From the NCBI GenBank assembly GCA_050014495.1, contig JBEKDF010000036.1:1-31142 (forward strand): a stretch of 31,142 nt of DNA, written 5' to 3'. The notes beneath the pieces are model-generated. The model was not told the DNA's origin, ran no database searches, and saw only the letters and a program-made list of their open reading frames with translations. The DNA is from Candidatus Bathyarchaeia archaeon (GTDB lineage: Archaea; Thermoproteota; Bathyarchaeia; TCS64). The position numbers and the translations under genes are program-made. Below are positions 5,773 through 31,034 of the stretch, piece after piece (within the stretch, counting starts at the first letter, position 1; each line of letters begins with the position of its first letter).

Positions 5773-5845
5773 AATTAGAGACATAATTGCTGCGCGCGAA
5801 CCAACATGTGCTTAATAGATGTTTAAGTGTGTTAATTCAATTAAT

Positions 5846-7141
5846 TTAGTGGATTTTGTTTATTATTTTTCTCAGTTTACCAGACTTGTCTCTTTCTATG
5901 TGTTTTACAAACTTAAAATTGATATCGATATCGGTTACAAATATGTCTTTTAGAATTTTTTTTGCGTGTTCTAATCTCTCTTCACCCACAAAATTTTCAT
6001 TTATCTCCAAATTGATGGTTAAACTGTTAATTTTATCTTGAATGATCTGATATTGGTTTATTCCCTGGTAATTATTGAATGGTTCATCTAATATATCCGA
6101 TAATAATCTGGGGGAAATTAATTTGCCAGCTTCATTTTCTAACGTATCATCTTGTCTCCCCTCAATCACCTTAAATAGGGGTAGTTTTACCCCGCATGAA
6201 CATTCATCGTCTAAGTGAATTGCCATGTCTCTCATTCTATATCTTATTAAAGGCATGGAACTATTATTCAATGAAGTACAAACTACTTCGCCTACTTCAT
6301 TATTACCTACAACTTCATTATTTTTGTTAATTAACTCTACATATATATTATCTATGTTTATATGGTACCCTTTATGTTCCTTACACTCCCAGGCTATCTG
6401 ACTCCATTCTTCACTGGCATAATTGTCGTAAACTTCTGATTCAAAAGTGTCTGAGATTTGTTTTCTAACTGACTGCTCTAATAGTTCACCGCTCGTTATG
6501 AGTATTTTCGGATTAATTTTAGCTTGAACATTTTTTGTGTAATAGTCTGCCAGTATTTTAAGGCAGGAGGGATAACTTTTTATTACATCTGGTTTAATAT
6601 CTGCTAATTTTTTTAATAACACGGAAGGATCATCAAAAATTGATAAATAATATCTATTGATTAATCCTAATCCTCCTCCAATTTTCATAAATATACCTTT
6701 ATTAGGACGCATATCTGCTGGGATTATTAATGTCGCATATTTATCCATCATTTTTATACCTCTTCGCATATTAGATCTTCTCCACATTACATCTTCAATT
6801 GATTTCTGATTTTTATCGATATATACATTTAATGGTATCCCAGTTGATCCACTTGTGTGTCTACAGAGTAATTTATTTTTATCATAGTTAACGCTTATAA
6901 TTTCTTCTAATGATAATCTTCTTATTGTTTCCTTAGACATAACAGGTAAATTCTTTATATCCTCAATATTATTAATATTATTAAATTTATCTTTATAGTT
7001 TCTATTATAAAATTTTATGTTATTGTAAGCATTATTAAGTATTTTAACAAACTTTTTATTTTGTATTTTCTTTATCTCTTCTGAGGATTTAAATAGATTA
7101 TTATTATACTCTATAAGGTGTTCTAAATCATTAAGAGACAT
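5846..7141 (-). CDS. Phenylacetate-CoA ligase family (PaaK/CapK-like) protein, second paralogue
   Basis: TSGSTG, YASEE, MPLIRYRMRD, EGR and SGKLR motifs. Confidence 0.9.
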   Translation of the reverse strand: MSLNDLEHLIEYNNNLFKSSEEIKKIQNKKFVKILNNAYNNIKFYNRNYKDKFNNINNIEDIKNLPVMSKETIRRLSLEEIISVNYDKNKLLCRHTSGSTGIPLNVYIDKNQKSIEDVMWRRSNMRRGIKMMDKYATLIIPADMRPNKGIFMKIGGGLGLINRYYLSIFDDPSVLLKKLADIKPDVIKSYPSCLKILADYYTKNVQAKINPKILITSGELLEQSVRKQISDTFESEVYDNYASEEWSQIAWECKEHKGYHINIDNIYVELINKNNEVVGNNEVGEVVCTSLNNSSMPLIRYRMRDMAIHLDDECSCGVKLPLFKVIEGRQDDTLENEAGKLISPRLLSDILDEPFNNYQGINQYQIIQDKINSLTINLEINENFVGEERLEHAKKILKDIFVTDIDINFKFVKHIERDKSGKLRKIINKIH

Positions 7142-7251
7142 ACTTATAGATTCAACTCTTACGTACCATAGGGGTAGTCATAAACCTTAATTGATAAGTT
7201 TATTGGAGGTTATATATGTAATAAAAAGACCTATCATTTATACGCGCTCAT

Positions 7252-7578
7252 TTAACCTGAGGGAAGGAAAACTGCTACTATCTTCATATCTTTCTGAACT
7301 ACTATGGTGGCGGGGTTATCTACACCTGATTGGTCTCCAGACCAGTAACTGAAAATGTTACCGGGGTCAGCTACTGCTTTGACCGTTATCGTTGTTCCCT
7401 GCAGAACCTGTATAGCGGTTTGGTAGCCTCCCTGTGGTTGGAAGGTGACTTGACCGTTTCCTATGACGGAGAGGGTGACGGTGTAGTATTTGGGTTGTAG
7501 AAAGACGAAGTATGTGACGCTTATTCCCGCTGCAATTACCGCGACTCCAATTATTGCGTAAATTATTAGTTTATTCAA
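7252..7578 (-). CDS. Small membrane-anchored protein with a divergent InlB B-repeat (Flg_new-like) domain
   Basis: TM helix followed by YTVTLSV-GNG-V...A.ADPG..FSYWSGD...NP..I.V..D..I.AVF. Confidence 0.75.
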   Translation of the reverse strand: MNKLIIYAIIGVAVIAAGISVTYFVFLQPKYYTVTLSVIGNGQVTFQPQGGYQTAIQVLQGTTITVKAVADPGNIFSYWSGDQSGVDNPATIVVQKDMKIVAVFLPSG

Positions 7579-7667
7579 TTTGTTTTCTACCTTTTAAGTC
7601 TGAAAAGGAGCTTAATGCTATTAAGGCTTTTGAGTTTATAACATAGATAATTAATTCACATCGTGAT

Positions 7668-11289: not shown

Positions 11290-11295
11290 AGCGGT

Positions 11296-11433
11296 ATTCA
11301 TGTTGGAGGTTTGGGCCCTCTTCGGGTCCTCGATACAGGTGTTTGGCAGAGATTCCCAGGTTTACTGAGGTCGCCGATTTCAGTTGAGGCCGATTAAAAA
11401 TAGTCTTGTGGATTAGTGATATTTAGTTAATTG
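11296..11433. repeat. Copy 1 of a diverged ~140-bp non-coding repeat with hairpins
   Basis: Aligns by eye with 26371-26510; the core TTTGGGCCCTCTTCGGG..CTCGATACAGGTRTTTGGCAGAGAWTCCCAGGT is nearly identical. Confidence 0.85.
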
Positions 11434-11487
11434 GGTTTTGCGCGTGCGCATATGCACAGATAGGAGCGAAGAAGACTGAGGCTTAGG

Positions 11488-12924: not shown

Positions 12925-13469
12925 TGGGTTCCGGTAGATGTGTGATTAATCATATTTTACGCCTTCGGTGAGAGTGGGTTGTGTTCGACCTGAGAAGTGG
13001 TCACACGTTGTCAATTGATCGAGGGACGAGGGTTTACTTCGTCACGTGCGCGCACGGAATACACGCACCCTGGCCACCCTTGGGAGACATATGTCAGAGT
13101 GGAGGCCACGGACTCCGAGGGGAGGGTCGCCTGGACCAACCCAATATACAAGATGTAAAAAAAGATATCCGTATCAGTCCGTGCGCGCTACGGTATAGGC
13201 GCACATGAGATGGAGACACAACCTAGAACATCAGCCACTCCGCTGGCTTCTAAGTCCATGAGGTGTCCTCTCATCCTTCTTGTCAGTCATTAATTGTTCT
13301 CCTCCATCTTGAACATATCCCTGCGCGCATCGTCTTGATCATCGTGTTTGTTGGCGCTGTGATAATGGGGGTTGTGTTGAGTTTGAATGAGGTGGTTGGA
13401 GTCTTGATGGTTCCCCGAAGAATATCTTATGGGGCTTCATCCGAACTGGAGGGGATAAGTGATGCAGAT

Positions 13470-13516
13470 GTAGGAATTGTTATTATAAGTAAGATTTATA
13501 TTAAAAAGTAAGAATT
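13470..13516 (+). promoter_or_regulatory. TATA box (TTTATA 13495-13500) with three GTARGAWTT direct repeats; likely autoregulatory operator of the TA operon
   Basis: Repeats at 13470, 13489 and 13508 (19-bp period) immediately upstream of ATG 13522. Confidence 0.6.
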
Positions 13517-13521
13517 ATTCT

Positions 13522-13779
13522 ATGGTGTACTACTTGGAGGAGGCCGTGAGGGTCAGCGAGAAGGGGCAAGTTGTCATCCCCAAGAGAATCAGGGATAAGA
13601 TCGGCCTAGAGACCGGAGACGAACTCACGGTTAATCTCGTGGACCAGAAGATAATTCTGAGGAAGAGACCGAAGAGCTACACAGACTATATGTGGGGTCT
13701 CCACGGAGACGCCTGGAGGGGCGTCGATGCTGGGGAATATGTTGAGGGGGAGAGGGAGTCTTGGCGGAGGAGAGGGTGA
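13522..13779 (+). CDS. vapB: AbrB/MazE/SpoVT-family antitoxin
   Basis: VSEKGQVVIPKRIRDKIGLETGDEL; overlaps a PIN gene. Confidence 0.9.
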   Translation: MVYYLEEAVRVSEKGQVVIPKRIRDKIGLETGDELTVNLVDQKIILRKRPKSYTDYMWGLHGDAWRGVDAGEYVEGERESWRRRG

Positions 13780-14240
13780 AGGAGGCTCTAGCTCCGCACG
13801 GGGTCGTCGGCGTAGACACCATGGTTTTCATCTACCACCTCGAGGGAGACGAGAGGTTTGGGCCCTTCACCCGTACCCTCTTTAGAAGTGTTGAGAGTGG
13901 TGAGCGTCGGGCCGTGACCTCCATTATAACGCTGCTTGAGACTCTTGTGAAGCCGAAGGAGCTTGGGGATGAGGAGATGAGGGATGATTATTATTATGCT
14001 TTAACCTCTTTCCCGCATCTGAAGATGAGGCCTGTGGATGAGGAGGTTGCTGAGGTGGCGGCTGAGCTCAGGGCTAGGCACGGGTTGAGGACGCCTGATG
14101 CGTTGCAGTTGGCGACATGTCTCGTTGAGGGGGCGAGCGGATTTATCACAAACGATGAGGGGCTGAGGAAGATCGAGGATCCTAGGGTCATTATCATGAG
14201 TGATTATTTCTTAAATGCAGGCGAGCCACCAATTAGGTAA
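13761..14240 (+). CDS. vapC: PIN-domain toxin VapC
   Basis: VDTMVFIY, TLLE, LRTPDALQLAT and FITND acidic-quartet motifs. Confidence 0.9.
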   Translation: MAEERVKEALAPHGVVGVDTMVFIYHLEGDERFGPFTRTLFRSVESGERRAVTSIITLLETLVKPKELGDEEMRDDYYYALTSFPHLKMRPVDEEVAEVAAELRARHGLRTPDALQLATCLVEGASGFITNDEGLRKIEDPRVIIMSDYFLNAGEPPIR

Positions 14241-14264
14241 ACTAAATTTGTTCGCGCGCGCGAT

Positions 14265-14363
14265 ACCTGTTGGAGACTCGGCCTCTGCTGAGGGAGTAGT
14301 TCCGGTGATGTAAGTTGGGTTGATGAATCAGGAAGTCCACCTCTTTAGGGGTGGGTAGTTCGC
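14265..14363 (+). mobile_element. Orphan IS200/IS605 (TnpB-type) right end / omega-RNA (reRNA)-like remnant
   Basis: CCTGTTGGAG-ACTCGGC-CTCTGC...TAA-GTTGGGT-TGATGAATCAGG-AAG, then the hairpin TCCACCTC-TTTA-GGGGTGGG and TAGTTCGC. This resembles tnpB 3' ends, recognised from memory. No tnpB ORF upstream. Confidence 0.65.
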
Positions 14364-16256: not shown

Positions 16257-16461
16257 CCAATCATGCTTACAGTCTCTATTTATTTACAGAAGCGTGTGTA
16301 ATTGAAATTCACATACACATTAGTGGGCTCCATCAACACTAGTTCTGCTCGAGCTGCGCGCGCTACCCTGTTCCTAACTTCCCACAGTTTAGAATAAACT
16401 TAAATTAATGATTAAGTCTTCGTACCCCCATGAGTTGTCCAGACACAGGAGGTAAGTTCAC

Positions 16462-16576
16462 TTTGGACAAGATGAACACGAGATCCTAGAAACACTCTTC
16501 AAAAACATCGACTTAAGCATTGCCCAACAACAACTTATCGGCTGCTACCACACAACCGGCCCAGGAAGATCCCCAA
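16462..16576 (+). pseudogene. Possible transposase N-terminal remnant
   Basis: Frame reads QDEHEILETLFKNIDLSIAQQQLIGCYHTTGPGRSP, resembling the D-L-S...Y...GRP N-termini of IS5/IS1182-like transposases. Ends at the GCGCGCGC tract at 16577. Confidence 0.35.
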
Positions 16577-16741
16577 GCGCGCGCATAGGATTCTCAGTGA
16601 GATCAACTCTCTAAGTCCCCTTGAGACAGGCGTCACCACCCCATTATTCCTACATGACTAAACACTTCAATGAAATATAAATAGTCGAATAAATACCATT
16701 AGGGGTCACCCAAGAGATGGAGGAAGAAACAACTCAAGACA

Positions 16742-17260
16742 ATAAGCTTAGAATCATTCAGCCTTGACCATACGCGGATCAAGGCCCCCTACGTCAGACT
16801 ATCAAAGAGGATCGAAGTCCCCGCAAGCAACTACGAGATCTCGGTGTTCGACTTCAGGGTCCGGACGCCCAACACGCAACTCCTCTCACCGAAGGTGACC
16901 CATTCCCTCGAACATCTATTCGCCGTAGCCCTCAGGACCGAGTTCGAGGAACATCAAAGAGACCTGAGCGTTATCGACGTCTCGCCGATGGGCTGCCGAA
17001 CCGGGTTCTACTTGACAATACTCAACCCGAGGGGCACACTGCCACTGGGAAGGATCGCGGCGTCAATAAGGTCGATGCTGGACATTGCCCTTGAGATAGA
17101 GTCTCTGCCGGGAGCCAGGAGGGAGACCTGCGGCGCTTTCGAGGAACACGATCTCGAAGGCGCGAGATCCGAGATAAGGCGCTTGGTTGGGGAGAGCATA
17201 GTCCAGTTGGATAAGCCACCCTGCTGGGGCCTTAACAAAAGAAGGAGCGACACTTGTTAA
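16742..17260 (+). CDS. luxS: S-ribosylhomocysteine lyase LuxS; anomalous 5' end (ATA start or frameshift from ATG 16717)
   Basis: In-frame upstream extension reads SLESFSLDHTRIKAPYVR; HSLEH, DVSPMGCRTGFY and CGAFEEHDLEGA motifs. Confidence 0.9.
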   Translation: MSLESFSLDHTRIKAPYVRLSKRIEVPASNYEISVFDFRVRTPNTQLLSPKVTHSLEHLFAVALRTEFEEHQRDLSVIDVSPMGCRTGFYLTILNPRGTLPLGRIAASIRSMLDIALEIESLPGARRETCGAFEEHDLEGARSEIRRLVGESIVQLDKPPCWGLNKRRSDTC

Positions 17261-17267
17261 CGAGTTC

Positions 17268-18392
17268 ATGGGTGGTCTTCTGAATCTGGTCAAATCATGC
17301 GACGTCGGAAGCATGCCTCTGAAGGGGCGGAGATACGAGTTCCTGGAGGGGGCGAAGAGGTCGCAGACCCTGACCCAGTACACGGGTTACGGGGAAGGGT
17401 TCAGTTATGTGAAGGTGTTCGAGGACCAAGTAGTTTCAGGCCTGATGGACAAGATGAGGGCAGGAATCGATGTCCCAACCTACCCACAGTACAGGGACAT
17501 GGACGAGATGTTTCTGGGCATGATCAATGGGCTCACGAAGACACCGAAGGGATACATGGCCTCTGGAAAGCTGTCTGTGGAGCCCGGGAAGATGATCCCG
17601 GAGGTCTACGCGGTGAGGAACCACCTAAGTGAGGTGTCGGAGGCGTCCAGTGTAGGTAAAGTGGGTTTAAAGGTCTGCGTGACGGGGCCCTATACGCTCT
17701 CCAGATCCTTCGCGGCTCGGACACCTGAGCTATTCACGGAGCTGGGAGGGCTCCTCAGCGAGGTAACATCCAACTCAATCTTCAAGGCTAAGAGGGGAGA
17801 GACAGCCCTAGTCTCCATAGATGAGCCCGCCTTCGGCCTCGCTGACGACCCGTTCCTAGACGTCGGCCACTCCGGCCGCGAGTGCCTCAGGAAGGCGTGG
17901 GAGGAGGTATCCTATGCGGCCAAGTCTAGGGGTGTGGAGACGATGATCCACCTCCACAGCACCGTCGACAGCCTGATGTGGGAGGTCGGGAAGCTGGACA
18001 TCATTGGCTCCCACGTCTCCGACCCTGTCTACGGGGCAGCCACGAACAGGCTGCTCGCGGAGACGGGGAAGAGGTTGAGCATCAGCGTGGCTACCACGAG
18101 CTTCGAGGAGCTCTTGGCAAGGGACGCGGAGACCCCTGAGGACGTCGGCCATCTCTGGGAGAGGATAAGGCGAGGGGAGACCGACCCTTCGACATATCTG
18201 GAGGGCGCTCAAGTCATAGCGGATAGGCTGAGCAGGTCGCTGAGACTCTTCGGCGAGGAGAACGTCCCCTACGCTGGCCCGGAGTGTGGGTTGGGCGGTT
18301 TCCCCACATACGAGTGTGCGATCCAGTACTTGGAAAGAATATCCCGCGTCGTCAAGCATACCAACGTCGATAAGTCAAATACACACTCCTAA
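17268..18392 (+). CDS. Single-barrel MetE/URO-D superfamily protein (cobalamin-independent methionine synthase-like)
   Basis: DVGSMP, PTYPQ, KVCVTGPYTL, SIDEP, IHLH and GPECGL motifs; 7 bp downstream of luxS. Confidence 0.75.
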   Translation: MGGLLNLVKSCDVGSMPLKGRRYEFLEGAKRSQTLTQYTGYGEGFSYVKVFEDQVVSGLMDKMRAGIDVPTYPQYRDMDEMFLGMINGLTKTPKGYMASGKLSVEPGKMIPEVYAVRNHLSEVSEASSVGKVGLKVCVTGPYTLSRSFAARTPELFTELGGLLSEVTSNSIFKAKRGETALVSIDEPAFGLADDPFLDVGHSGRECLRKAWEEVSYAAKSRGVETMIHLHSTVDSLMWEVGKLDIIGSHVSDPVYGAATNRLLAETGKRLSISVATTSFEELLARDAETPEDVGHLWERIRRGETDPSTYLEGAQVIADRLSRSLRLFGEENVPYAGPECGLGGFPTYECAIQYLERISRVVKHTNVDKSNTHS

Positions 18393-18413
18393 AGGGGTGG
18401 GCTTGTAGCTCAA
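18374..18413 (+). mobile_element. IS200/IS605 IscB/HEARO-type end remnant
   Basis: GTCAAATACACACTCC-TAAA-GGGGTGGGCTTGTAGCTCAA; closely similar to the reverse complement of 30811-30850. Confidence 0.7.
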
Positions 18414-18522
18414 GTCCTCCGCGCGCGATAGGGCAGTACAAATGATGAAATTACTTAGCGCGCGCGTTGGTAGCTCACTTGCGGATTAAAATATTGAGAG
18501 ATACCCTTTTGGCCGGGTTGGG

Positions 18523-20059: not shown

Positions 20060-23000
20060 TCAAGAATCACGCATGAGTGGTTTGTCAACTCCCAGTTTCT
20101 GGAAAGCGGACGCGACGTGCAGCGCCAGAGTCTCCATCAACTCCCTATCGACCTCATCAAACGCATGGAGTTCCTCGCTCTCCAAGTTGATCACAGCAAC
20201 GGTCTCCCCATACACAATAACCGGGACATCAAGCTCGGACCTGGAGCCCACCGCCCCTCGAACGTAGCTAGGCTCCACTCCGGTGTCGGTTGTGAGGATT
20301 GACCTCTTCTCCTTGGACGCCCTGACGGTGAGACCCCTACCGTCCAATGGCAATCTGATAGTTGGAGAGAAATTGCCTCTACTGGAGGTGATCACGAGGG
20401 CGCCGTCACGAGGTTCGAGGAATGAGAGGTAGTGAAATCCAACCACAGACTCAACCGCATCCAGGGTGGCACGTATTATTTCATCTCTGGTGCTGGCCTC
20501 CGCCAGCCTCTCGGCGTGGCGATGGAGGGCGGCGACCTGTCTACCCTGCCTCTTCATCTCGGATACGTCCCTACCGATGATTAGTATTGAGGGCTTTCCT
20601 TGCCGAATGATTAGGTTGAAGGATGCGTCGATTGGTACGATTCTCCCATTCTTAGCTAAGATCAGTAACTCGTACCTCGTTGGCTGGGGCTCTCCTCTCT
20701 GTCTACTCAGGGCCCTCTCCTTAACCTCTTCGAGCGTCTCCTTAGATAGGACCTTCGAGATATCCACGCCGATCAAATCGCTGGGGGATTCGTAGCCGAG
20801 TTTCTCCGCCGCCCCCTTGTTGACGTATGTGATTGTGGTACCCGAGATGAGGGCTACGAGCTCACGTGATGAGTCCAGTAGCGTCCGATAAGTCTCTTCA
20901 TTCTCTCTATTAGCCTCGATTTGCTTTATCCTAGTGATCGCTGAGGCCACGTGATCGGCGAAGAGTACGACTAGCCTCTTATCCTCGCCCGTGAAGGCGT
21001 CTGCCTTCACGCTCTCCAAGTTAATGACCGCCTTAACCTGTTCGCCGATCACAACTGGAACCACAAGTTCGGATAAGAAAACTGTGCCAGGATCAAACGA
21101 TCCAATATAATCCTTCTCAAGGCGAGTATCTGGGACGAGCTGGGCTTCACCTGTTCTAAAGGCCCTCACTGTTACACCGGGTCCGCTGAGTGGTAGTTCC
21201 TTACGCCAACTCTTATACGAACCCGTCTTAGACACGAAACTCAGCCTATCACCTTCCACTAAACCGAAGCTACCATATTCGGCTCCCAAGACCTGTTGAA
21301 TTGTCTCCAGGGTGATCTTCGCGACTTCCTCGAGATCCAGGCACTTTGCGAGTTTTGATGTGTGGCTGGATAAGGCCTCAAGCTTGATCTTGTAAGTCTC
21401 CCCCAATTCCATGGATCTAATCCTCTTGATGGCGGAGCCAGCCTCATCCGCCAGAGCCTCCATGAGCGTCTTCTCATCCTCGCCAAATGCGTTCAGTTCC
21501 AGGCTCTCTGCGTTCAAAACACCGAGCAACTCGTCCCCGCAGAGAATCGGGGTCGCTATTTCGCTTAGGGAATCAGTTTTACCCTTAACGAAATCAGGGT
21601 CCAAACGTGTGTCTTTAACCAGCAAGGTCCTTCTTTCTCGTGCAACCTTAGCGGTCACCCCCTTCTCTCCAATTGGCATCGACGCCCTAATGGGCTCCAC
21701 ACCTCTGGTGGCTAAGATGTGTAAATTTTCCCCTTTGGCTAATTGTATGCCTAGGAACTTGCAGCTCAAGAGCTTCTGTAATATGTCTAGGGTGACGTTT
21801 GCCAAATCATCCATATTCCGCAGCTCATTCAACTCATGCGCATGCTCATGCAGGGAGGCTATTCTACTCTGCAGCGCCTGTTTTTTCTTTTCATTTGAAA
21901 TATCGCGTATGAATGTTAGACTCGCGTTTTCTCCGTTGAAGACGATTCGTGAGATAGAGAATTCAACGGGGATGAATGACCCATCCTTCCGGATTAGCTC
22001 CACGTCGTACTTGTTCGGGACCGATTCTCCTAGGGCTCGTCTCCGAGTAAAGTCCTCAATCAGTTCTCTGTAAATATCTCTAGTGCATTCTAAAACACCT
22101 TTCACAAGTAATTCGTCGACGGAATATCCCATCATATCGGCGAAGTGCTGGTTTACGTACACTGCTTTACCCAAGACGTTGACGATGACGCCCTCCGGTG
22201 CGGAGTCCAGCATATACCTGAAGCGTTCCTCTGACCGGGTCAGGGCCCTTTTAGATGCTTTGATTACCTTAAAGTGCTCAATTCTCGAGAACGCCGAGGC
22301 AACGTGCTTCGAGAGGATCTCAACAATCTCCATATCCTCCTCGCTGAAGAAACCCAGCCTCCTGTCCTCAAGATTGATCACCGCGATGACTCTTCCAGCC
22401 ACCTTCACTGGTACATCCAGCTCAGATAGAAAATCAACTGGCTCAACATCCTTCACGAAGTCCTCATCCAATCGGGTGTCTGGGACCAGCTGAGACTTCC
22501 CCGTCCTAACCGCCCTAGTGGTGATACCCTTTCCATTCAGTGGGAGATCAGAAATCTTGAAGGTCAGGTTCCTCGCGTACTTAAACTTGATGACGTCGCC
22601 TACAACGATGCCGATGCAGCCATCACTGAATCCAAGCAACTCATGAAAAACTTCGAATGTATACTCAGCCACCCCTTTTTCCGAGTTTAGATCCAAAAGA
22701 TATGCCGCATGCCTATTTATCTGCTCAAGCCTGGAGAGATACTTTTTAGCTGATTCAAGCATTTTAAGCCTGTTTAGGGCTGATCCTACGTGTTCGGAGA
22801 AGATCTCGAGTAATTTAGCGTCATTCCAAGTGAACTTATCCAGCTTCTCGTCCTCGATGTTGATGACGGCGACGACCTTACCACCGATCTTTACTGGAAC
22901 AACAATCTCGGAGAGGTACCTAAGCCCCGACTTCGGGCCGATGTAATCTTGGTCAAGACGCACATCAGGGACTATGATCGAGGAACCAGTACTCACAGCC

Positions 23001-24022
23001 CTCCCACAGACACCTGGACCCCCAAGCGGATACTCAAGCGACCAATCGTCGCCGATGTCCCCGTTTGGTAGAAACCTTAAAACATCGCCCTCAACCACTC
23101 CGAGTCCGAAGAAGCCGTAGCCCATTATTTCATGTAAAATCTGATAAGTAGTCTCAGTCACCGCGGTAACGTCTTCACATTGGCTAAGCGTCAACGCGTG
23201 GCTCTGCAGCGCCTCAAGCCGCTCCTTCATCTGAGCCTCAAGCCGCTTACGATCCGAGATGTCCCTGCTGAAGCTCAGAACCGCGTCGACGCCCATGTAC
23301 CTGATGACCGTGGCGCTGACCTCGACGGGGATATCCTTCCCTTCACATGTGACTTGAACGGATTCGAAGACAGCATGCCCCTGCCGGATAATCTTCTCCA
23401 AGTTGTCCTTGAAGTTTATACTATTCTTTGCGATATCCTTATACTGGTTCTCCCTCAGGAGCTCCTCCCTTGTGTAGCCTAGCCTCTCGCAGCCCGCCTT
23501 GTTTGCGTCGAGGATTTTTCCATTAAGGTCGCGTATGAATATCGCGTCGCTGGCGTTCTCGAAGAGATTCCTGTAGCTCTCGTTGCTCCGGCGGCGCTCA
23601 ACTGCCTGTCTGATGCGCTTAGACACGACTTGGTAGTGAGCTGGCGCCATCTCTTTTCTAATATAGTCGTCTACTCCAGCCGCGAATGCTCTCTCCGCGA
23701 CCTCCTCGCTGCCCCTTCCCGTGTAGATAATTATGGGTATGTTGCTGGTTTCCCTGATCTTCTTAGAGAGGGTTATTCCATCCATGTCCGGCATGTCGTA
23801 GTCGGAGACGATGCAGTCGTAGGCACCCGTCTGAACTAGGTCTATAACGTCTTGAGCACAATGAGTGGAGGTGACCTTTATGCTTGGATCGTTCTCGACG
23901 AAGATCTTGAGGAACATCTGCTGCTGCTCTTCGTCGTCGACGTGGAGGACCCGGATTACCTCCATAGAAGACGCTAGAACCAGGTCAGATTCGAGATGGT
24001 TCTTATCGTCATCTAAGGTCAT
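20060..24022 (-). CDS. Multi-sensor signalling protein: REC-PAS-GAF-GAF-PAS-GAF-GAF-PAS-GAF, no kinase/output domain
   Basis: REC motifs (VDD, SDYDMP, YTG, YIRK); three PAS/PAC units ending in RDIS/RDVS; five GAF repeats (D-R-DPDY...SE-VP...VIN-ES...F). Confidence 0.9.
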   Translation of the reverse strand: MTLDDDKNHLESDLVLASSMEVIRVLHVDDEEQQQMFLKIFVENDPSIKVTSTHCAQDVIDLVQTGAYDCIVSDYDMPDMDGITLSKKIRETSNIPIIIYTGRGSEEVAERAFAAGVDDYIRKEMAPAHYQVVSKRIRQAVERRRSNESYRNLFENASDAIFIRDLNGKILDANKAGCERLGYTREELLRENQYKDIAKNSINFKDNLEKIIRQGHAVFESVQVTCEGKDIPVEVSATVIRYMGVDAVLSFSRDISDRKRLEAQMKERLEALQSHALTLSQCEDVTAVTETTYQILHEIMGYGFFGLGVVEGDVLRFLPNGDIGDDWSLEYPLGGPGVCGRAVSTGSSIIVPDVRLDQDYIGPKSGLRYLSEIVVPVKIGGKVVAVINIEDEKLDKFTWNDAKLLEIFSEHVGSALNRLKMLESAKKYLSRLEQINRHAAYLLDLNSEKGVAEYTFEVFHELLGFSDGCIGIVVGDVIKFKYARNLTFKISDLPLNGKGITTRAVRTGKSQLVPDTRLDEDFVKDVEPVDFLSELDVPVKVAGRVIAVINLEDRRLGFFSEEDMEIVEILSKHVASAFSRIEHFKVIKASKRALTRSEERFRYMLDSAPEGVIVNVLGKAVYVNQHFADMMGYSVDELLVKGVLECTRDIYRELIEDFTRRRALGESVPNKYDVELIRKDGSFIPVEFSISRIVFNGENASLTFIRDISNEKKKQALQSRIASLHEHAHELNELRNMDDLANVTLDILQKLLSCKFLGIQLAKGENLHILATRGVEPIRASMPIGEKGVTAKVARERRTLLVKDTRLDPDFVKGKTDSLSEIATPILCGDELLGVLNAESLELNAFGEDEKTLMEALADEAGSAIKRIRSMELGETYKIKLEALSSHTSKLAKCLDLEEVAKITLETIQQVLGAEYGSFGLVEGDRLSFVSKTGSYKSWRKELPLSGPGVTVRAFRTGEAQLVPDTRLEKDYIGSFDPGTVFLSELVVPVVIGEQVKAVINLESVKADAFTGEDKRLVVLFADHVASAITRIKQIEANRENEETYRTLLDSSRELVALISGTTITYVNKGAAEKLGYESPSDLIGVDISKVLSKETLEEVKERALSRQRGEPQPTRYELLILAKNGRIVPIDASFNLIIRQGKPSILIIGRDVSEMKRQGRQVAALHRHAERLAEASTRDEIIRATLDAVESVVGFHYLSFLEPRDGALVITSSRGNFSPTIRLPLDGRGLTVRASKEKRSILTTDTGVEPSYVRGAVGSRSELDVPVIVYGETVAVINLESEELHAFDEVDRELMETLALHVASAFQKLGVDKPLMRDS

Positions 24023-24645
24023 ATCATCGTTTATATGGTGTTAGTGATTATTCCTTATAACGAAAATGGAGTAGAAACACATCATTATATTAACATAATT
24101 ATACTATGATGAATAGTTAAAAGTTACTCTTGAATGATGATGGAGAGTAAATGTGCTAAATTACATGAAAATCATTGTAAAAATTATAACAATTTAATAG
24201 AATTATTAAGATAAATATTGAATAATGATTAAAGATATTCTGATTGTGGTGTAAATGATATTTAATGAATAATCACATCGAAAAATCGCTGTAGGCAGTG
24301 AGTGGATGACCTGAGTGTTTTCCTAGCTTCCCACACTTGTCGGGACAGGTTGTCTTCTGGCGCGCGCGATTTTTGAATAAATTCTAAGCATGCATTATTG
24401 TAGCAATGAGGAGTAATATCCATGCAACTTAGTTTTTGCGCGCGCGCCTCCCTCGAGTACCAGCCAAACGTTCTGTGTTAAAACACCAGTCCAGATAGTT
24501 GAGATGAGCCAGTTGAGGCCGTAGTCTTACAAGGTGGTTAACAGTAGGCTACCCATCAACAATGGAAAGGTATACCTCATTTCAACTCACACCTCCGGCG
24601 TCGCGCGCACATAGTTAAGGATGCACGTGTTTCTCGGGGGTTGAT

Positions 24646-25155
24646 CTAAGCTTTGCGGAGATGGGATACTGCGAGGAGTGTACCCTTGACTATGATAAGG
24701 AGAGGAGGGCACATTGAGGTTAGCATCAGGGTCGTTATGTTTAGGGAGAGGTTTGCCTGAATGCTCATCGGAATGTTGATTTCTAGTGCACTTTGGATCT
24801 GGGTGACGGGAATCTGGATGTCTATGGTTCCTCCGTGGAGGAGTACGTAGGAATATGTGATTAGGGAGGCTCCTAGGAGGATGAGGAAGGGGCCTTCGAG
24901 CTTCGTCTTCCTGAGCATCATGGTTGCGAGTACGAGGAGGGATGCGAGGATTCCTAGTGTTGGGATCCTCGGGTCGAGCAGCTGATTGATGAGAGCCAGT
25001 AGCTGGGCGTTAGGGATCTCGGTGCTCGTGTAGTCTATGAGAGCTCTAGGTAGGATGTATAGGGCTGCGAGGCTGAATACAGATAGGAGGATGGCTATTA
25101 TCGCCCTCAATGTGAGCCTTGCAGCAGATATTTCGATGTCCAGCAACTTAACCAA
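24646..25155 (-). CDS. Hypothetical membrane protein (about 4 TM)
   Basis: Hydrophobic segments; coupled to the upstream gene by an 8-bp overlap. Confidence 0.7.
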   Translation of the reverse strand: MVKLLDIEISAARLTLRAIIAILLSVFSLAALYILPRALIDYTSTEIPNAQLLALINQLLDPRIPTLGILASLLVLATMMLRKTKLEGPFLILLGASLITYSYVLLHGGTIDIQIPVTQIQSALEINIPMSIQANLSLNITTLMLTSMCPPLLIIVKGTLLAVSHLRKA

Positions 25156-26305
25156 GGGATCCGACCTCCAGGTCTATGGACCCAAGCTGGGTCTCGAGGC
25201 CCAGCACAAGCTTGGGGCTACTCATTAACTGGCTGTTTGGGACGACGATGTCGAAGTTGAGTGAGGCTGTTTCTCCGGGTGTGACGTGGAGTTGCTGTTT
25301 GTTGCCCACCCAGGTATCACCTGACCCGTTCACGAGTTTTGGGGTTATTGATCCGTCTATGGTTAGGATGTTGTTGTTGTTTAGGAAGCTTAGCATGGCT
25401 TTTACTCTCGTATATGTCGCGTTCACAGGTGTTTGGGTGGTCGAGATCTTTAGGTTCTTTATGGGTGCTCCCCAGTTTAGGTTGATGCTCTTGCTGAGCT
25501 TCGTGGCGATGGGTAAGCCGGTGAGTGTGAACTCCATGTCTGCCCTGTATCTGAGTGTCGCGTCCTTTAGGAGCAGGTCTTCGAGGTTTGTCGGGGGAGA
25601 TAGGGTGATCTGTGCGGAGTCGTTCCATTTGGTCATTGGTTGGGAGGTGATTTTGAGGGTTCCTAGGCCAACCTGGTGATCTGTGGAGTTAAATACGGAG
25701 ATCACGCCCTCGCCGTTCACTGCGAAAAACGGGGACTGGTTTTCGAATGAGAAGGGTAACTCTATCATGATTTGGGTTGGGGTCATTCCCTTGATGGTTG
25801 GTTGTCCGATAGCAGGGTTGTGGATGGGTGGAAGCCAGGTTACTCGGGCGGTGGCCTCTGCTGTTATTGAGGTGATTGGCTGCATGCCCACGTGTGCTGA
25901 TACATCGATGGTGAAGTTCTCCGGGTTGGATGCGAGGCGCTTCGCGTCTTCCTCCGAGACCTTGCTTAGGTCGATCTCGACGGAGACTGGGATTCTCTGC
26001 AGCGGCGATCCAGCCTCAACGGTTAGCTGAGGCGCTGTGATGCTTATCGGGGTTCCCTGGTTGCCGTTGACCGAGGCTGTGACGTCGGCTTCAGTCCTGA
26101 AGGGCCCTGAGTTTCTTATGGTGAGGACTGAGGATAACGTGAATTTGCCGTTGTTTAGGGACTGTGTTGTGTTGTCGAGTTTGATTGAGTTCGCGACTCC
26201 GGCGACGTTGTTTGCGGTTATAATTAGTAGGGCAGGGAGTATGAGTAGAGAGAGCAGGATCAGCAAGTTGAGTACGGTCAGGCCTTTTATCAACTGGTTT
26301 GACAT
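25148..26305 (-). CDS. Membrane-anchored protein with about three LEA-2/Ig-like beta domains
   Basis: N-terminal TM helix; repeated (I/F)xNxx(P/N) motifs: IRNSGPF, FENQSPF, FLNNNNI. Confidence 0.65.
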   Translation of the reverse strand: MSNQLIKGLTVLNLLILLSLLILPALLIITANNVAGVANSIKLDNTTQSLNNGKFTLSSVLTIRNSGPFRTEADVTASVNGNQGTPISITAPQLTVEAGSPLQRIPVSVEIDLSKVSEEDAKRLASNPENFTIDVSAHVGMQPITSITAEATARVTWLPPIHNPAIGQPTIKGMTPTQIMIELPFSFENQSPFFAVNGEGVISVFNSTDHQVGLGTLKITSQPMTKWNDSAQITLSPPTNLEDLLLKDATLRYRADMEFTLTGLPIATKLSKSINLNWGAPIKNLKISTTQTPVNATYTRVKAMLSFLNNNNILTIDGSITPKLVNGSGDTWVGNKQQLHVTPGETASLNFDIVVPNSQLMSSPKLVLGLETQLGSIDLEVGSLG

Positions 26306-26370
26306 CCTCTCATGCGAATCGATTTGGTTTGCATATTTTTCTACTTCAATTAATTCCAGTGTAACACAAT

Positions 26371-26510
26371 GTTCACGTTATGATTTGGGCCCTCTTCGGG
26401 CCCCTCGATACAGGTATTTGGCAGAGAATCCCAGGTATTCTGGAATCGCCGGTTGCAAGTTTGTCTGGATTGAATTAGTCTTTGTGGATTGGTGATATTT
26501 GGTTAATTGG
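26371..26510. repeat. Copy 2 of the diverged ~140-bp non-coding repeat
   Basis: Same orientation as 11296-11433; shares the GGGCCC-TCTTC-GGGCCC hairpin and the downstream TTGTGGATTRGTGATATTTRGTTAATTGG block. Confidence 0.85.
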
Positions 26511-26959
26511 AGAGATTATGCTTCTCACGCATTAGTTATCCCTTTCTATATTACTCATGGAAATCAGGAAAACGTACGTGTGCAATCGATTAGAATATTG
26601 TTTTCTTGTCGCCTTCATTCATCGGTTATAATTGATTTGGACTCCATCATTATTAGAGAAATAGTATCAACATATAAATGAATATAATGATTTAATCCTG
26701 ACTATCCTAACCCGTACCTGTGAGTTTAAATTAATAAGCAATTATTAACTACTATGATACAACTTGTCTTATTTATTTCCTCAAAATTACTGTATTGAAC
26801 ATTATTTATTTTCGTAAGCCAACATCATTCGCAAGCATCTAATATGTTATCGTCATCTAAAACTTAATTTAGGAGAAGCTTATACTTGTAAATCAGTGGA
26901 GGTCGCTTTCAAATCTATATCGGGTATAGAGAAATACTTGACTGGGGAGAAAAGTAAAT

Positions 26960-27262
26960 ATGACTAATAAAAGATCGAAGCTAGAAATCTATGTTGATAT
27001 AATGGATGAGATCAATAAAGGAACAACTCAACCAACAAAGATCATGTACGCTGCTAATTTAGCCTGGATACCTGTTCAGCGGATGCTCAAATCACTAGTC
27101 AACCAAGAGCTTATAGAGGAATATGACGCCGATGAACATGATCAGAGAAGCAACAAGTTGTATTGTATGACCGAAAAAGGTCAAAGCGTTTTACTTTATT
27201 TCGATAAAGTTAGAGGGATTTTAGAAAAGAAGAAACCAGTTGAGATAATGGGCTGGAGATAG
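26960..27262 (+). CDS. Archaeal winged-HTH transcriptional regulator (HTH_45-like)
   Basis: KRSKLEIYVDIM...PTKIMYAANL...LKSL...Y.MTEKG signature. Confidence 0.85.
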   Translation: MTNKRSKLEIYVDIMDEINKGTTQPTKIMYAANLAWIPVQRMLKSLVNQELIEEYDADEHDQRSNKLYCMTEKGQSVLLYFDKVRGILEKKKPVEIMGWR

Positions 27263-27471
27263 AACCCTCCTCATCTTGGTTTAATCTATTTCGCAGTACC
27301 GCTCGTGGTTACCAGTTTAAAAACATAATAGTTACGCGCGTGCGCCGTCCTCGTCTCGCTCGATGACTACGCTGTATTTCAGCTGTTTCGCCCCTTGTTC
27401 GTGTCTGTAGTTAGAGGTTTAAACTTATCATTTCTTGTTCTTCACGCGCGCTAAATGGAGTGCACGCGCGA

Positions 27472-27843
27472 TTAAATGAAGACGACGCCTTTAACACCTT
27501 TTAGATCCTCGTCGCTGGTGTAGAGCTCCGCACCATAATGCCTAGCGGTCGCATAGACCACAGCGTCAGTCATATGCAGTCCAAATATTAGACTGTAGTC
27601 AGCGGCCTCGAGAGAGAGGGACTGGTCGACGGGCACCACAAGGGTCTGACCGATGGCGGCCACTGTCTCCAAGGCGCTCTGCTCGTTCACAGCCTGCTTG
27701 ATCTTCTTGTAGACCTCGTAGAGCACCATCGCTGAGGTGACTATCTCATTGGGGGCAACCTTATCGATGACCGCATTGTAGAGGTCGGCCTTGGGACCCT
27801 TGGTGATTCGTTCGATCCACCCGTAGGAGTCGACTGAGATCAA
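27472..27843 (-). CDS. vapC: PIN-domain toxin VapC
   Basis: VDSYGWIE, VLYEV, LHMTDAVVYATA and LYTSDED motifs. Confidence 0.9.
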   Translation of the reverse strand: MISVDSYGWIERITKGPKADLYNAVIDKVAPNEIVTSAMVLYEVYKKIKQAVNEQSALETVAAIGQTLVVPVDQSLSLEAADYSLIFGLHMTDAVVYATARHYGAELYTSDEDLKGVKGVVFI

Positions 27844-28049
27844 CTTCTATCATACTCGTCTCTGAGGTCACTCGTATCGAGGCCCGGCACCATGCCCTTC
27901 GTGGCTCCCAGGGGCTTGATTGGAACGTAATGAATTATGTTGTGCTTCACGATGACGGCCATCCTGTCACCTGGCTTTATCCCCGCCTCTCTTCTAACCC
28001 TCTCGGGGATGATGACTTGATACTTGCTGGAAACGGTTACCGACTCCAT
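27840..28049 (-). CDS. vapB: AbrB/MazE/SpoVT-family antitoxin
   Basis: VTVSSKYQVIIPERVRREAGIKPGD; 4-bp overlap with vapC. Confidence 0.9.
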   Translation of the reverse strand: MESVTVSSKYQVIIPERVRREAGIKPGDRMAVIVKHNIIHYVPIKPLGATKGMVPGLDTSDLRDEYDRS

Positions 28050-28353
28050 CGATCCTCTAACCGTAAAACAGTTATCCTATCGATATAAAGGCGTCGAAAT
28101 ACATGCGCGCACTGCAACGTCTGCACTGCCTCCCTTTTTCCTGGCCCCCCAAATCAATGATTAAGCTCTCATACACAATCTCTACACTGTGACAACGTGG
28201 TACCCTGACTGGGCGTTCTGCTGCGAGACACATAATAGGATGCTACATGAGTTTTGTGGATACGAGGGCTACACACCGTACGCGCAAGATGCCTTCAATG
28301 CTATAATCGCCGAAATGCGCGCTGGCCTGTCCCGAAAATGGTTAAAAATGGTA

Positions 28354-29541
28354 TTAATTCCCCTCAACGGATTTGGGCAGGCGAATACGGTCTTCCTTAA
28401 TGGGCCTGATCGCCAATAAGCTGCACAGGCCTATGACCGGAAGGACAATACCCACCAATCCCCAGCCAGCGTAAGCTAGCATCAAACCACCTAGTCCAGT
28501 GCCAACGCCGTAACCCAGCTGAAGGGCGGCGAAGTTGAGGCTCATCACAGTCCCACTCTGATCTGAGGACTGGTCCAAACTGAGGGCGCTGTTCCCATTC
28601 AACCTGAAGCCCATCATGAGGTTCCCCGCCATGATGGCGGCCACGGACAACGCGGCACCCGGCAAGTAATGGTACGCGAGCGTCATTGAGGAGATCCCGA
28701 GCACGCCTATGATCGTGGTCCTCCTAGGCCCAAGGCCCCGTATTAGGCGACTCGTAGCGATGCCCCCAATGATGTAGAAGGCGGCTGTCCCTGTGTAGAT
28801 GAAGCCTGTCTCGATTGTGCCCGTGCCATAAACCTCCTTCAGGAAGCTGAAGCAGTAGAGATTGAGGCCCATCTCGGCTGCGGATGCTAGGAACCCACCC
28901 ACCAGGCTCCTAACAGCGCCTCTGTTACCCGCGATCCGCCTCATGCTATATGTGAGGCCATCATCGCTGCCCCTCGCGTCGGATCTGGGTAATAGCACCA
29001 AGGTGGATATGAGTCCTAGAAGGGAGAGGGCCCCAGCGAACCCTAGAAAGGCCAATCGCCAGCTACCATACTGTGCGAGGAAGCTCACAACGACTCCACC
29101 AACCAGGAATGGTACTCCCGCGGCGGTTCCGAGGAGGCTGATCACCCTCCCCCTCTCCTCCCTGGGATAGTACTCGCCGGCCAGCGTGTTGGTCATCGGT
29201 ATGGCCAACGCTATACCCAGACCCGAGATCGCGGTGAAAGCCAGAAGCATCGTGAAGCCCGTGGAGAAGGCGGAGGCTATCGATCCCGCTGCTATCGCAG
29301 CTAGGCCGGCTATCAGTAAGCTTCTGTAGCTGAGCCTGCTCGTCAGCACCGTGACCAGGAGGCTGCCGAGTAGAGCTGATAGGTTGAGGGTCGTCACCAG
29401 CTGGCCCGTCAGCGGCAGTGGGGTTCCGAGTGAGAGGCTGATCTCGACAAGTAGCAGGCTGAGCACGGCTGTTGGGGGGTTCGTGCTAGCGATGCTGATT
29501 AGGAGTGCAGGGAGAACCCTCACCTTTTCCTCTGGTTTCAT
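28354..29541 (-). CDS. MFS transporter
   Basis: About 12 TM segments; EYYPREERGRV and RLIRGLGPRR loop motifs. The ATG at 29541 is preferred over the ORF-track start at 29589. Confidence 0.88.
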   Translation of the reverse strand: MKPEEKVRVLPALLISIASTNPPTAVLSLLLVEISLSLGTPLPLTGQLVTTLNLSALLGSLLVTVLTSRLSYRSLLIAGLAAIAAGSIASAFSTGFTMLLAFTAISGLGIALAIPMTNTLAGEYYPREERGRVISLLGTAAGVPFLVGGVVVSFLAQYGSWRLAFLGFAGALSLLGLISTLVLLPRSDARGSDDGLTYSMRRIAGNRGAVRSLVGGFLASAAEMGLNLYCFSFLKEVYGTGTIETGFIYTGTAAFYIIGGIATSRLIRGLGPRRTTIIGVLGISSMTLAYHYLPGAALSVAAIMAGNLMMGFRLNGNSALSLDQSSDQSGTVMSLNFAALQLGYGVGTGLGGLMLAYAGWGLVGIVLPVIGLCSLLAIRPIKEDRIRLPKSVEGN

Positions 29542-29606
29542 GTAAACGGATTGCTCTGCAGTGATGTTTGTGTTTTTCCATATATGCACTCTGTTGTGTA
29601 TGCGCG

Positions 29607-29801
29607 CAGGCGAAGTATCTGAAGATCTGCAGGGGATTCATTGGCACCTCGGATCCATCGGATGTCGCTCATGCGGCCACCTGTCTCCAGACGGGGTCGA
29701 CGCTGATCAGTGATGATCGCCACTTCGATAAGATACGGGATGAGGAAATCGTTGATGTTTGGGGCACTGAGAGGGCATTTGATGAATTGCTGGGACCTTA
29801 A
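29607..29801 (+). pseudogene. 5'-truncated PIN-domain toxin (C-terminal half only)
   Basis: DPSDVAHAATCLQTGSTLISDDRHFDKI is a PIN C-terminus; the N-terminal DTN motif is absent. Begins at the GCGCGC tract at 29602. Confidence 0.75.
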
Positions 29802-29857
29802 TATTTCACTGCATGCGCGCACAGTGCACATACGTAACGATATTCAGCGTGCCCGAC

Positions 29858-30697
29858 TCAATATGTTCTCGGTGTTGATATCTTTATACGGGTCAAAAAA
29901 CCAAAATACGCATCCCTGGCATTCTCAGCCACGAATCTAATTTTTGTCGCGGATAGCAGTTCATCTCCCAAAAAGTGGTGAACCGCATGAGCATTAGATT
30001 GGTCAGGGTAATCAATCTCTACTGTAATTGGATTATCATACGTTAGTGCAGAGATCTCATTCATCCTCCTCAAACCATCTTTAACAGCTTCCCTGATTAG
30101 ATTCTTTGACCTTTTAGGGGTGAGGCTGATAGCCATATATCGACCGAAGCCCTTCTTAACTATGGCTCCGGATATCTTTTCGGAGATATTTCCCTTTATA
30201 TAGTTCACCGTTGCCTCATCTCCCGAAACTGCGACTAGGGGAACACCATAATAGCCAGCTAGACTCGCATTCATACAAGCCTCGGTAAGAGATTTTCCAT
30301 TAAATCTTACTTCTCTCACGTTCCAGTTATGGCACAGTACAGCGTTGGATAAGAGGGGGTGACCATGAGCACCTATACATATCAGGGCGTCGAAACTATC
30401 ATCGAGGCCGAAAACCTCGTCATATAATTCCCTTGAGTTCAGAACCACTGAGACATTTCCGGGAAATTCTTCGAAGAAGACATTCATATTCGTTGAGTGT
30501 CCGTCGTTAAACAGAATCTCGGCATTTGGATCAACCTCCAAAACGCCCTCGATCGCCGCTAACACATCGTCGGTGGCTAACCTCTTAGCGCGTTGAAAAG
30601 CCTCTGGAACAGAGGCATCCTGCCCCATTTGTCCTCTAATGGCAGTTCCCGTGCATCCCTCCATGTCAAAACTTAGGTATATTTTCATAACTGTCAA
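29858..30697 (-). CDS. dppA: M55-family D-aminopeptidase (DppA-like)
   Basis: KIYLSFDMEG, NDGH, IGAH, LCH, GVPLVAVSGD and VKKG motifs; GGTGA RBS and TTATATA upstream. Confidence 0.88.
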   Translation of the reverse strand: MTVMKIYLSFDMEGCTGTAIRGQMGQDASVPEAFQRAKRLATDDVLAAIEGVLEVDPNAEILFNDGHSTNMNVFFEEFPGNVSVVLNSRELYDEVFGLDDSFDALICIGAHGHPLLSNAVLCHNWNVREVRFNGKSLTEACMNASLAGYYGVPLVAVSGDEATVNYIKGNISEKISGAIVKKGFGRYMAISLTPKRSKNLIREAVKDGLRRMNEISALTYDNPITVEIDYPDQSNAHAVHHFLGDELLSATKIRFVAENARDAYFGFLTRIKISTPRTY

Positions 30698-30810
30698 CTA
30701 ATCTCACCCATTAGACGGTATATAAGCGCGCGAAGATGAAATTAAAGCAGTTAGCTGTTTGTGAGTTTAATAGCACGCTTAACATGCGCGCGCGCAGCGG
30801 GTGCTAGAGT

Positions 30811-30850
30811 TTGAACTGCAAGCCCACCACTTTAGTGGTGGGTAGTTGAC
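30811..30850 (-). mobile_element. IS200/IS605 IscB/HEARO-type end remnant
   Basis: Minus strand GTCAACTA-CCCACCAC-TAAA-GTGGTGGG-CTTGCAGTTCAA with a perfect 8-bp stem. Confidence 0.75.
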
Positions 30851-31002
30851 CTTCTCTCACGGTCCTCTCTGATCATCTCTACAACTTCGTCTGTGCTTAT
30901 TTTGTCGAGGACGGGCTTGAGGCGCTTCAGCTCTGTGTTTATTTCCTCGATCTCCCTGCGTTCTATCTCTGCCTCCAGGGATTTACGTATTAATTCCCCG
31001 GC
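30832..31002 (-). pseudogene. 5'-truncated VapB-like antitoxin
   Basis: Reads AGELIRKSLEAEIERREIEEINTELKRLKPVLDKISTDEVVEMIREDRERR, with a typical ...IREDRE tail. No start codon; begins at the GCGCGCGC tract 31001-31008. Confidence 0.7.
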
Positions 31003-31034
31003 GCGCGCTCTATGTAGCGCGTTTCAGGCATCAT

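Follow-up and report, generated by a model that had tools for sequence, protein, structure and literature searches.

Insertion sequences (ISs) of the IS5 family make a direct target duplication of fixed length, and IS5 itself prefers a short palindromic target. The excision footprints of cut-and-paste elements derive from the duplicated target or from a few terminal bases and are not a uniform 6- to 10-bp repeat, and the flanks of piggyBac re-anneal through self-complementary overhangs; we know of no description of such footprints in a prokaryote at the density reported below. Non-homologous end joining by Ku and LigD, which operates in bacteria and in Methanocella, joins broken ends and can add untemplated bases, and to our knowledge it yields no fixed alternating repeat. 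REP elements and the HIP1 sequence of cyanobacteria are short palindromes present in hundreds of dispersed copies, with lineage-specific abundance; REPs are longer, conserved in sequence and hairpin-forming, and HIP1 is common inside genes. IS1272 is reported to insert at inverted-repeat structures and to replace them without duplications (PMC5678879). Here we analyzed short alternating G/C tracts, (GC)n, in a 31,142-nucleotide stretch of DNA from a Candidatus Bathyarchaeia archaeon (contig JBEKDF010000036.1 of assembly GCA_050014495.1). This stretch, the window, is the entire contig C36 of a 3.1-Mb, 92-contig metagenome-assembled genome (MAG; G000) from peat. With a probability of about 0.6, we interpret the tracts as marks at the ends of, and scars left by, a clade of IS5/IS1182-like ISs and not as the product of a separate joining system.

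An insertion sequence with alternating-GC flanks

Searching the genome by BLAST with 1258 tract flanks revealed other copies for 279 flanks, 120 of which abutted a tract. The main repeat family at the tracts was an IS of 1284 bp that is bounded by inverted repeats TGGCTYGTCCCKAAA and has one gene. The 15-bp terminal inverted repeats read TGGCTCGTCCCTAAA / TGGCCTGTCCCGAAA, and the sole open reading frame (ORF) encodes a transposase of 331 amino acids. This protein matched the domains DDE_Tnp_1 (51.5 bits, cut-off 23) and DUF772 (37.8 bits, cut-off 23.1), and its match to DDE_Tnp_1_6 (18.4 bits) was under the cut-off of 25.1. Its best NCBIfam match was IS1182 (NF033551), at 94.7 bits in three stretches, which did not reach the cut-off of 270; the IS5 model NF033581 gave 84 bits over residues 14-306, with a cut-off of 140 not reached.

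Nearly all genomic termini matching the IS inverted repeat (46 out of 48) were preceded by an alternating G/C run of at least 5 bp, and all 46 runs were in the same phase, with ...GCGC followed directly by the T that opens the IS. Run lengths at these termini were 6 bp in 15 cases, 8 bp in 12, 9 bp in six, 7 bp in five, and 5 and 10 bp in four each; solo tracts share this size class, at 6-10 bp. Even among IS ends at least 97% identical to each other, the runs spanned 5-10 bp and differed from copy to copy. The left and right runs of individual ISs were unequal, their sums were 11-18, and nothing was duplicated outside the runs.

The association extended to other genomes. IS ends in four other species had such a run at 19 out of 23 termini (14 loci), and in five other genera of family f1 (g17, g13, g15, g10 and g12) a run abutted a recognizable IS terminus at 11 out of 12 loci. 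The ISs of these other genera carry four different inverted repeats (TGGCTTGTCCC, TAGGCTGTTTAGAAA, AGGCGGATTAAATAATT and CAGCGTGTTGCTAAATT), and their transposases are 31-72% identical. Runs were present at IS termini even in the tract-poor genomes G065 and G076, and in G001 the lone GCGCGCGC in 1.8 Mb abutted the single IS-end remnant present there. One conserved gene is followed by a tract plus the IS in our genome and, at the equivalent position in G013, by a decayed run, GCGCTCGCG. For two IS junctions (C24:45818 and C30:116), a paralogue had no tract at the insertion point, which indicates that the IS does not simply seek out tracts. The intact ends of other repeat families of this genome did not abut tracts. 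At the complete IS on contig C5, relatives share the left flank only.

We also noted an IS variant, at C17:58706-58789 in our genome and at loci L044 (G016) and L051 (G012), that has the same 18 bases before the inverted repeat in all three species. In our genome, the tract at this variant lies about 60 bp further out, which suggests a mobile unit extended by an additional terminal segment.

The window itself contains two pieces of the IS. One, a 213-bp end fragment at 16364..16576 (+ strand), comprises a diverged inverted repeat and transposase residues 1-53. An 8-bp tract lies outside its terminus (16356..16363; tracts are given without strand), and a second 8-bp tract marks its internal truncation (16577..16584). 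We considered this fragment as a MITE and rejected the idea: it represents a single IS end that is broken internally, and eight IS copies match it at one of their ends with 76-81% identity. The other is a solo terminal piece at 28323..28377 (+ strand), with the inverted repeat TGGCCTGTCCCGAAA, whose intact terminus adjoins a 6-bp tract (28317..28322). A preliminary description of the window, made from its sequence alone, had seen no responsible enzyme; these two pieces of a DDE-transposase IS, together with the roughly 40 IS ends of this kind across the genome, speak against that statement.

Distribution of the tracts in the window and the genome

A computed search for maximal alternating G/C runs of at least 6 bp found 22 in the window, each spanning 6-10 bp in total (nine of 6 bp, four of 7 bp, four of 8 bp, two of 9 bp and three of 10 bp). 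They start at exactly the 22 positions that had been read by eye in the preliminary description, whose three near-misses (82, 7243 and 11440) were confirmed as 5-bp runs. The window has 11 runs of 5 bp, several of them within genes (for example, at 10277, 12217, 12485 and 17160). None of the 22 tracts lies within a gene having a Pfam match, as the preliminary description had held for credible genes, and some overlap short ORFs with no match (12981-13208, 13263-13511, 28189-28419, 29538-29831 and 30893-31123). GCGCGC occurs 30 times in the window; the mean in 100 dinucleotide-preserving shuffles was 2.98 (sd 1.8, max 11), and none of the 100 reached 30. The tracts are non-random and intergenic, and their flanks are unrelated, as first described. 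An Rfam scan of the window at the gathering threshold matched no family, and a tRNA scan found none.

The first tract of the window (7 bp, 5792..5798) is between two convergent genes ending at 5772 and 5846, and a 6-bp tract at 13183..13188 is in DNA without relatives; another of 6 bp follows at 13323..13328. A 9-bp tract at 18458..18466 is followed by one of 9 bp upstream of a PAS/GAF sensor gene (24360..24368) and then by tracts of 10 bp (24438..24447) and 7 bp (24602..24608). Further tracts are at 27335..27340 (6 bp), 27445..27451 (7 bp), 29815..29820 (6 bp) and 30726..30732 (7 bp, upstream of a peptidase M55 gene). The last (8 bp, 31001..31008) lies 30 nt downstream of a gene for a MazE-type antitoxin, which the contig end interrupts.

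The tracts are not an assembly artefact. Logan contigs from four runs in four studies, all of peat, bridge 13048-14253, 18420-18458, 24360-24602, 27335-28105 and 29602-31001. Over four of these spans we found zero other letters, and the contig bridging the fifth (27335-28105) has a single-base deletion at 25932, outside any tract; the tracts are carried unchanged, and the junctions are thus not the assembly chimeras that the preliminary description had allowed for. We saw no tract polymorphism in the contigs of the four runs; contigs hide rare variants, and this result therefore does not bear on how tracts arise. The sole alternative joint in the peat contigs, from 21901 to 28130, has just 24 nt on one side and is too weak to use. 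The two window IS pieces (16364-16576 and 28323-28377) had repeat-level depth, and 28323-28377 also showed loose ends.

To describe tracts genome-wide, we split coding from intergenic DNA with a crude ORF caller of our own, which called 81.6% of bases coding; the intergenic part makes up 18% of bases and has 42% GC. Runs of at least 7 bp numbered 543 in intergenic DNA, 100 in coding DNA and two straddling the boundary, an intergenic density about 24 times higher. The comparison with a Markov null that the preliminary description had proposed gave GCGCGC enrichment in intergenic DNA only: 1121 copies were observed against 49, 188 and 520 expected (orders 1, 2 and 3, respectively), and in coding DNA 348 against 385, 378 and 254. 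For GCGCGCGC, the intergenic count was 424, against 2.1, 16 and 87 expected, and the coding count was somewhat in excess (87, against 19.6, 19 and 10), probably owing to mis-called ORFs or to scars inside genes.

Run lengths across the genome (481 of 6 bp, 186 of 7, 192 of 8, 144 of 9, 111 of 10, five of 11 and four of 12) plateau at 7-10 bp and stop hard at 10. By contrast, AT, AC, GT, AG and CT repeats decay geometrically in length in both coding and intergenic DNA, which rules out general microsatellite slippage as the source of the tracts. Tract density was 1.5 per kb in convergent spacers, 0.81 in tandem and 0.79 in divergent ones. Whereas 107 out of 361 tracts lay within 30 nt after a stop codon, only 22 out of 352 lay within 30 nt before a start codon, as would be expected of neutral marks tolerated up to functional boundaries.

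Flanks of the tracts had no consensus and no T-run. The only bias was in the adjacent base, T before runs starting with G and A before those starting with C, and the two sides were independent, on which ground we rejected a palindromic constraint on the two flanking bases (-1 and +1). We likewise rejected the idea that runs of 8-10 bp are decayed 10-mers, since the base past the first mismatch was in phase at 0.19-0.24, equal to background. Some 6- and 7-mers do look decayed, with that base in phase at 0.41.

Broken genes, deletions and the origin of the tracts

The preliminary description placed tracts at breaks, and this stands for 13048, 14253, 16577 and 29602, although the antitoxin fragment at 31038-31142 that it included is cut by the contig end and not by a tract. 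At the first of these, we aligned the flanks to related genomes, as had been suggested there. Seven relatives have an amidohydrolase gene followed by a ybaK-like gene, and the homology of the window stops 15 nt into the 3' end of the latter (13033..13047, - strand), exactly at the 6-bp tract at 13048..13053. The genome of the window has the complete gene on contig C40, just past a tract that cuts a thioredoxin gene in its active-site motif.

A 10-bp tract at 14253..14262, 13 nt past the stop of a PIN toxin gene, is the truncation point of an IS605-type tnpB element. Only the last ~100 bp of the tnpB gene plus the right end with its terminal hairpin is left (14263..14361, + strand), and it matches the 3' end of an intact tnpB at C19:37201-38391 (OrfB_IS605 89 bits, TNB domain 61.7 bits). 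Two shorter pieces, each cut at a tract, are tied to this remnant through shared matches: an inverted one at 18371..18419 (- strand; 8-bp tract 18420..18427) and one at 30796..30851 (+ strand; 10-bp tract 30786..30795). A single locus in G009 matches the first of these and 30807-30850, in opposite orientations. Both had been taken for IscB-type ends; we found no IscB-like sequence, and the two pieces instead derive from the tnpB-type right end also seen at 14253. As a separate observation, tnpB elements have repeatedly been reduced to a final 40-100 bp, with a tract marking the cut, at C33:32000-32009 and at window positions 14253, 18420 and 30786; the piece with the right-end hairpin is what often survives.

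The 3' part of a VapC-type PIN gene remains at 29608..29798 (+ strand), covering Pfam profile positions 81-118 of 120 at 23.5 bits, just below the cut-off of 23.6; its 5' truncation coincides with a 6-bp tract (29602..29607). An intact MazE/PIN module at 27472..28049 (- strand) has homology to three relatives only from tract to tract, that is, from the 6-bp tract at 27465..27470, 1 nt from the PIN stop codon, to the 6-bp tract at 28105..28110 on the opposite edge. In G011, the tracts lie at other distances.

A LuxS-like gene lies beside a MetE-like gene in this archaeon (window 16844-18392). It may be broken at its 5' end, because its ORF starts at profile position 33 out of 154 and DNA homology to relatives begins some 190 bp farther upstream (16643-16656). 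On contig C30, a paralogous LuxS fragment ends at a tract (C30:11840).

Genome-wide, we scored paralogue truncation by a one-sided criterion, namely homology on one side of the site only. Such truncation occurred at 39 out of 526 tract sites, against 35 out of 1066 random intergenic sites, and homology crossed the site at three tract sites against 23 random ones. In 15 out of 15 comparisons, the paralogue, taken as the unbroken state, had no (GC)n run of at least 6 bp at the break; a tract is therefore added sequence and not a pre-existing hot spot, as the preliminary description had offered as its second option. A tract replaced 455 bp within one IS copy, where at least 6 of its 10 nt were untemplated, and 167, 317 and ~470 bp in three paralogue pairs of this genome. 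At C9:85302-85309, GCGCGCG stands for the CCTGGCT of C8:24157-24165, 7 bp for 7 bp, with both sides conserved between the paralogues; this tract is inside a probable gene and causes no frame change. One syntenic locus has an intact gene of ~170 amino acids in G002, and the same gene in G008 with ~440 bp replaced by GCGCGCGC; there our genome and G009 have other tracts elsewhere, and G012, G015 and G017 have deletions without a tract. At another syntenic site, C1:179049, the spacers of the relatives are unrelated. Loci L060 and L062 were left out of the comparisons.

We then followed two candidate genes across genomes, the co-distribution analysis that the preliminary description had recommended for several classes of gene. 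Counts of GCGCGCGC in 401 genomes of the class were set aside as confounded by GC content, and 10-mer counts were used in place of these 8-mers; in G015 (58% GC over the 400 kb sampled), for example, run lengths decay geometrically and the sample has no 10-mer. A 10-mer match was found in 23 of 36 other genomes of family f1 and in 1 of 24 outside it, with high counts within the family in genera g1, g17, g13 and g15. The transposase was present in 5 out of 5 tract-rich genomes tested from g17, g13 and g15 and in 2 out of 5 tract-poor ones. In the genus, the genomes richest in IS ends (40 in G000 and 26 in G016) have tract counts among the highest, and two genomes are essentially tract-free.

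Ku is rare in archaea. This genome encodes a Ku homologue (C3:65798-66334, 129.8 bits), as do 14 out of 17 genomes of the genus, both tract-poor ones included. Among tract-poor genomes, G001, G010 and G018 have Ku; among tract-rich ones, no Ku was found in G184, a single-contig genome, or in G206, G214, G096 and G155. This distribution speaks against Ku/LigD end joining as the tract source; of the two genes followed, the transposase tracks the tract-rich genera but Ku does not. Ku also occurs in genus g2, and in none of 43 other Bathyarchaeia genomes searched.

On our preferred interpretation, each IS insertion would leave a self-complementary (GC)n run at its two junctions; the element would either bring this run along as its outermost part or generate it on integration. 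If the IS were then lost through annealing or recombination between the two flanking runs, a single run of the same size class would remain, and lone tracts would come to lie at deletion and rearrangement junctions where IS-mediated deletions or recombination between copies preceded such a loss. Selection would keep these neutral scars outside genes only, which fits tracts being rare within ~40 nt upstream of start codons and frequent just after stops.

Several results weigh against it. All seven before/after comparisons showed a deletion or replacement and none a plain insertion, although insertion followed by loss should often give one, and we know of no DDE transposase that adds or carries a variable-length flank. 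These two points, the second in the form of a missing chemistry for a capped variable flank, hold our estimate down to about 0.6. In addition, 19 of the 22 window tracts have no adjoining IS sequence (only those at 16356, 16577 and 28317 touch IS pieces), only 120 of the 1258 tract flanks genome-wide abut any repeated DNA, and odd-length runs are as common as even-length ones, an equality not expected from a simple duplication-plus-microhomology model. With our query we found no transposase in G013, G015 and G003, which have 20-101 ten-mers. G008, whose ten-mer count is in the same range, has the clean deletion with GCGCGCGC, zero IS termini and only a 33%-identical transposase, and G065 has five transposase matches and few solo tracts. 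Of these genomes, G013, G015, G003 and G008 are incomplete MAGs (84-94% complete), and G013 has two IS ends at contig ends.

Some of these results would be explained if broken ends, IS-made ones included, were healed by an activity, host- or transposase-encoded, that writes a fixed self-complementary (GC)3-5 tail. Such a tail would create microhomology de novo and let any two ends anneal and join; we consider this idea unlikely. In its IS-independent form, host end joining would put a (GC)n tail on each broken end, and annealing of the tails would leave 6-10 bp of filler at every repair, capture and IS junction. That would account for the missing plain insertions and for a variable flank capped at 10 bp. 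It agrees with the seven deletions or replacements carrying an untemplated run, with a tract at C33:31597 in which at least 6 out of 10 nt come from neither parent, with the 15 unbroken paralogues lacking a run of at least 6 bp, with the one-sided truncations (39/526 against 35/1066) and with the deletion plus tract in G008, which has no detectable IS ends. The left and right runs of one IS are also independent in length, as separate joinings would be. We nonetheless judge host end joining unlikely. Four divergent IS subfamilies carry the run even where solo tracts are nearly absent (G001, G065 and G076), and a host system idle elsewhere in those genomes does not explain their IS-end runs. Intact ends of other repeat families do not abut tracts, deletions at the same locus in G012, G015 and G017 are tract-free, Ku does not co-distribute with tracts, and no candidate enzyme was identified. 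An undescribed joining system, as originally proposed for the window, has lost its place as the most economical explanation.

Some bacterial ISs target REP palindromes, and the IS here might merely target tracts that pre-exist for another reason. The position of 46 out of 48 IS ends in or beside a tract would suit this, several IS copies are compatible with an 8-bp GCGCGCGC duplication, and some runs flanking young IS copies show transition-type interruptions, as old targets would. But paralogues are tract-free at two IS junctions, no single duplication length fits all copies (left plus right sums of 11-18), tract-poor genomes still have tracts at IS ends, and the tracts at deletion junctions are left without an origin; we thus consider targeting very unlikely. 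A functional intergenic signal, such as a protein-binding site, a Z-DNA-prone insulator or a terminator element, seems scarcely credible. Tracts do show a strong intergenic bias, reach their highest density in convergent spacers (1.5 per kb; 0.8 in tandem and divergent ones) and often follow stop codons (107/361 within 30 nt), and their flanking bases extend the purine-pyrimidine alternation. Yet they occur in all spacer types and at gene truncations, differ in position or are missing between species at syntenic loci, have neither a flanking consensus nor a T-run, match no Rfam family in the window and are essentially absent from two genomes of the genus.

If the IS interpretation is true, the clade has a junction chemistry undescribed for DDE transposases, with an alternating-GC run at every junction, and a concrete, testable transposase is in hand. 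The more than 1000 lone runs per genome would then record past insertions, deletions and rearrangements, and would provide a cheap sequence-only marker for accessory-genome reshuffling in uncultured Bathyarchaeia, revealing the toxin-antitoxin, tnpB and metabolic modules that had been trimmed or relocated. Should end joining be the source, the tracts would be the written record of a novel mechanism that joins DNA ends. A literature search of limited reach returned no description of such tracts or of such an IS flank.

Neighboring features and comparison with known systems

Elsewhere in the window, the region 2500-7500 has 27-36% GC, against 49% for the genome, and is probably acquired DNA. Its genes are of polysaccharide type and include two AMP-binding-like ORFs and a glycosyl hydrolase 39-like ORF, adjoining an FrhB/FdhB-like gene. 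A 127-bp direct repeat, 80% identical, links two intergenic regions 15 kb apart (11310-11434 and 26384-26510). The sensor protein encoded at 20060-24022 has 1320 amino acids with five GAF and three PAS domains, and the segment encoding PAS at 23597-23823 is repeated in four other contigs.

Among described elements, the archaeal IS is intermediate between IS1182 (94.7 bits) and IS5 (84 bits), falling short of both curated cut-offs. With the IS1272/IS1182 family of Staphylococcus it shares its best NCBIfam match, the DUF772 N-terminal domain and, as reported for IS1272, the lack of a conventional target duplication and the palindromic DNA at the junction. However, its IS1182 match of 94.7 bits compares with a cut-off of 270, and the protein of 331 amino acids with a model of 488 positions. 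Unlike IS1272 as reported, it is flanked at either end after insertion by one fixed palindrome, (GC)3-5, and no such run was present in the paralogues examined for two insertion sites. More than 1000 lone copies also remain per genome, unlike with IS1272.

The IS resembles the IS5 family in its DDE_Tnp_1 domain and in its architecture: a length of about 1.2-1.3 kb, terminal inverted repeats of 15 bp and a single gene, for a DDE transposase. It differs in scoring 84 bits against the NF033581 cut-off of 140, in having no fixed-length duplication (runs of 5-10 bp, unequal left and right) and in the alternating-GC nature of its flank.

Excision footprints of Tc1/mariner, hAT and piggyBac elements are likewise short marks that stay after the element leaves. 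A Ku gene, as in Ku/LigD joining, is present in this genome, but Ku is not co-distributed with the tracts. Unlike REP elements and HIP1, the tracts described here are 6-10 bp long, are excluded from genes and lie at breakpoints.

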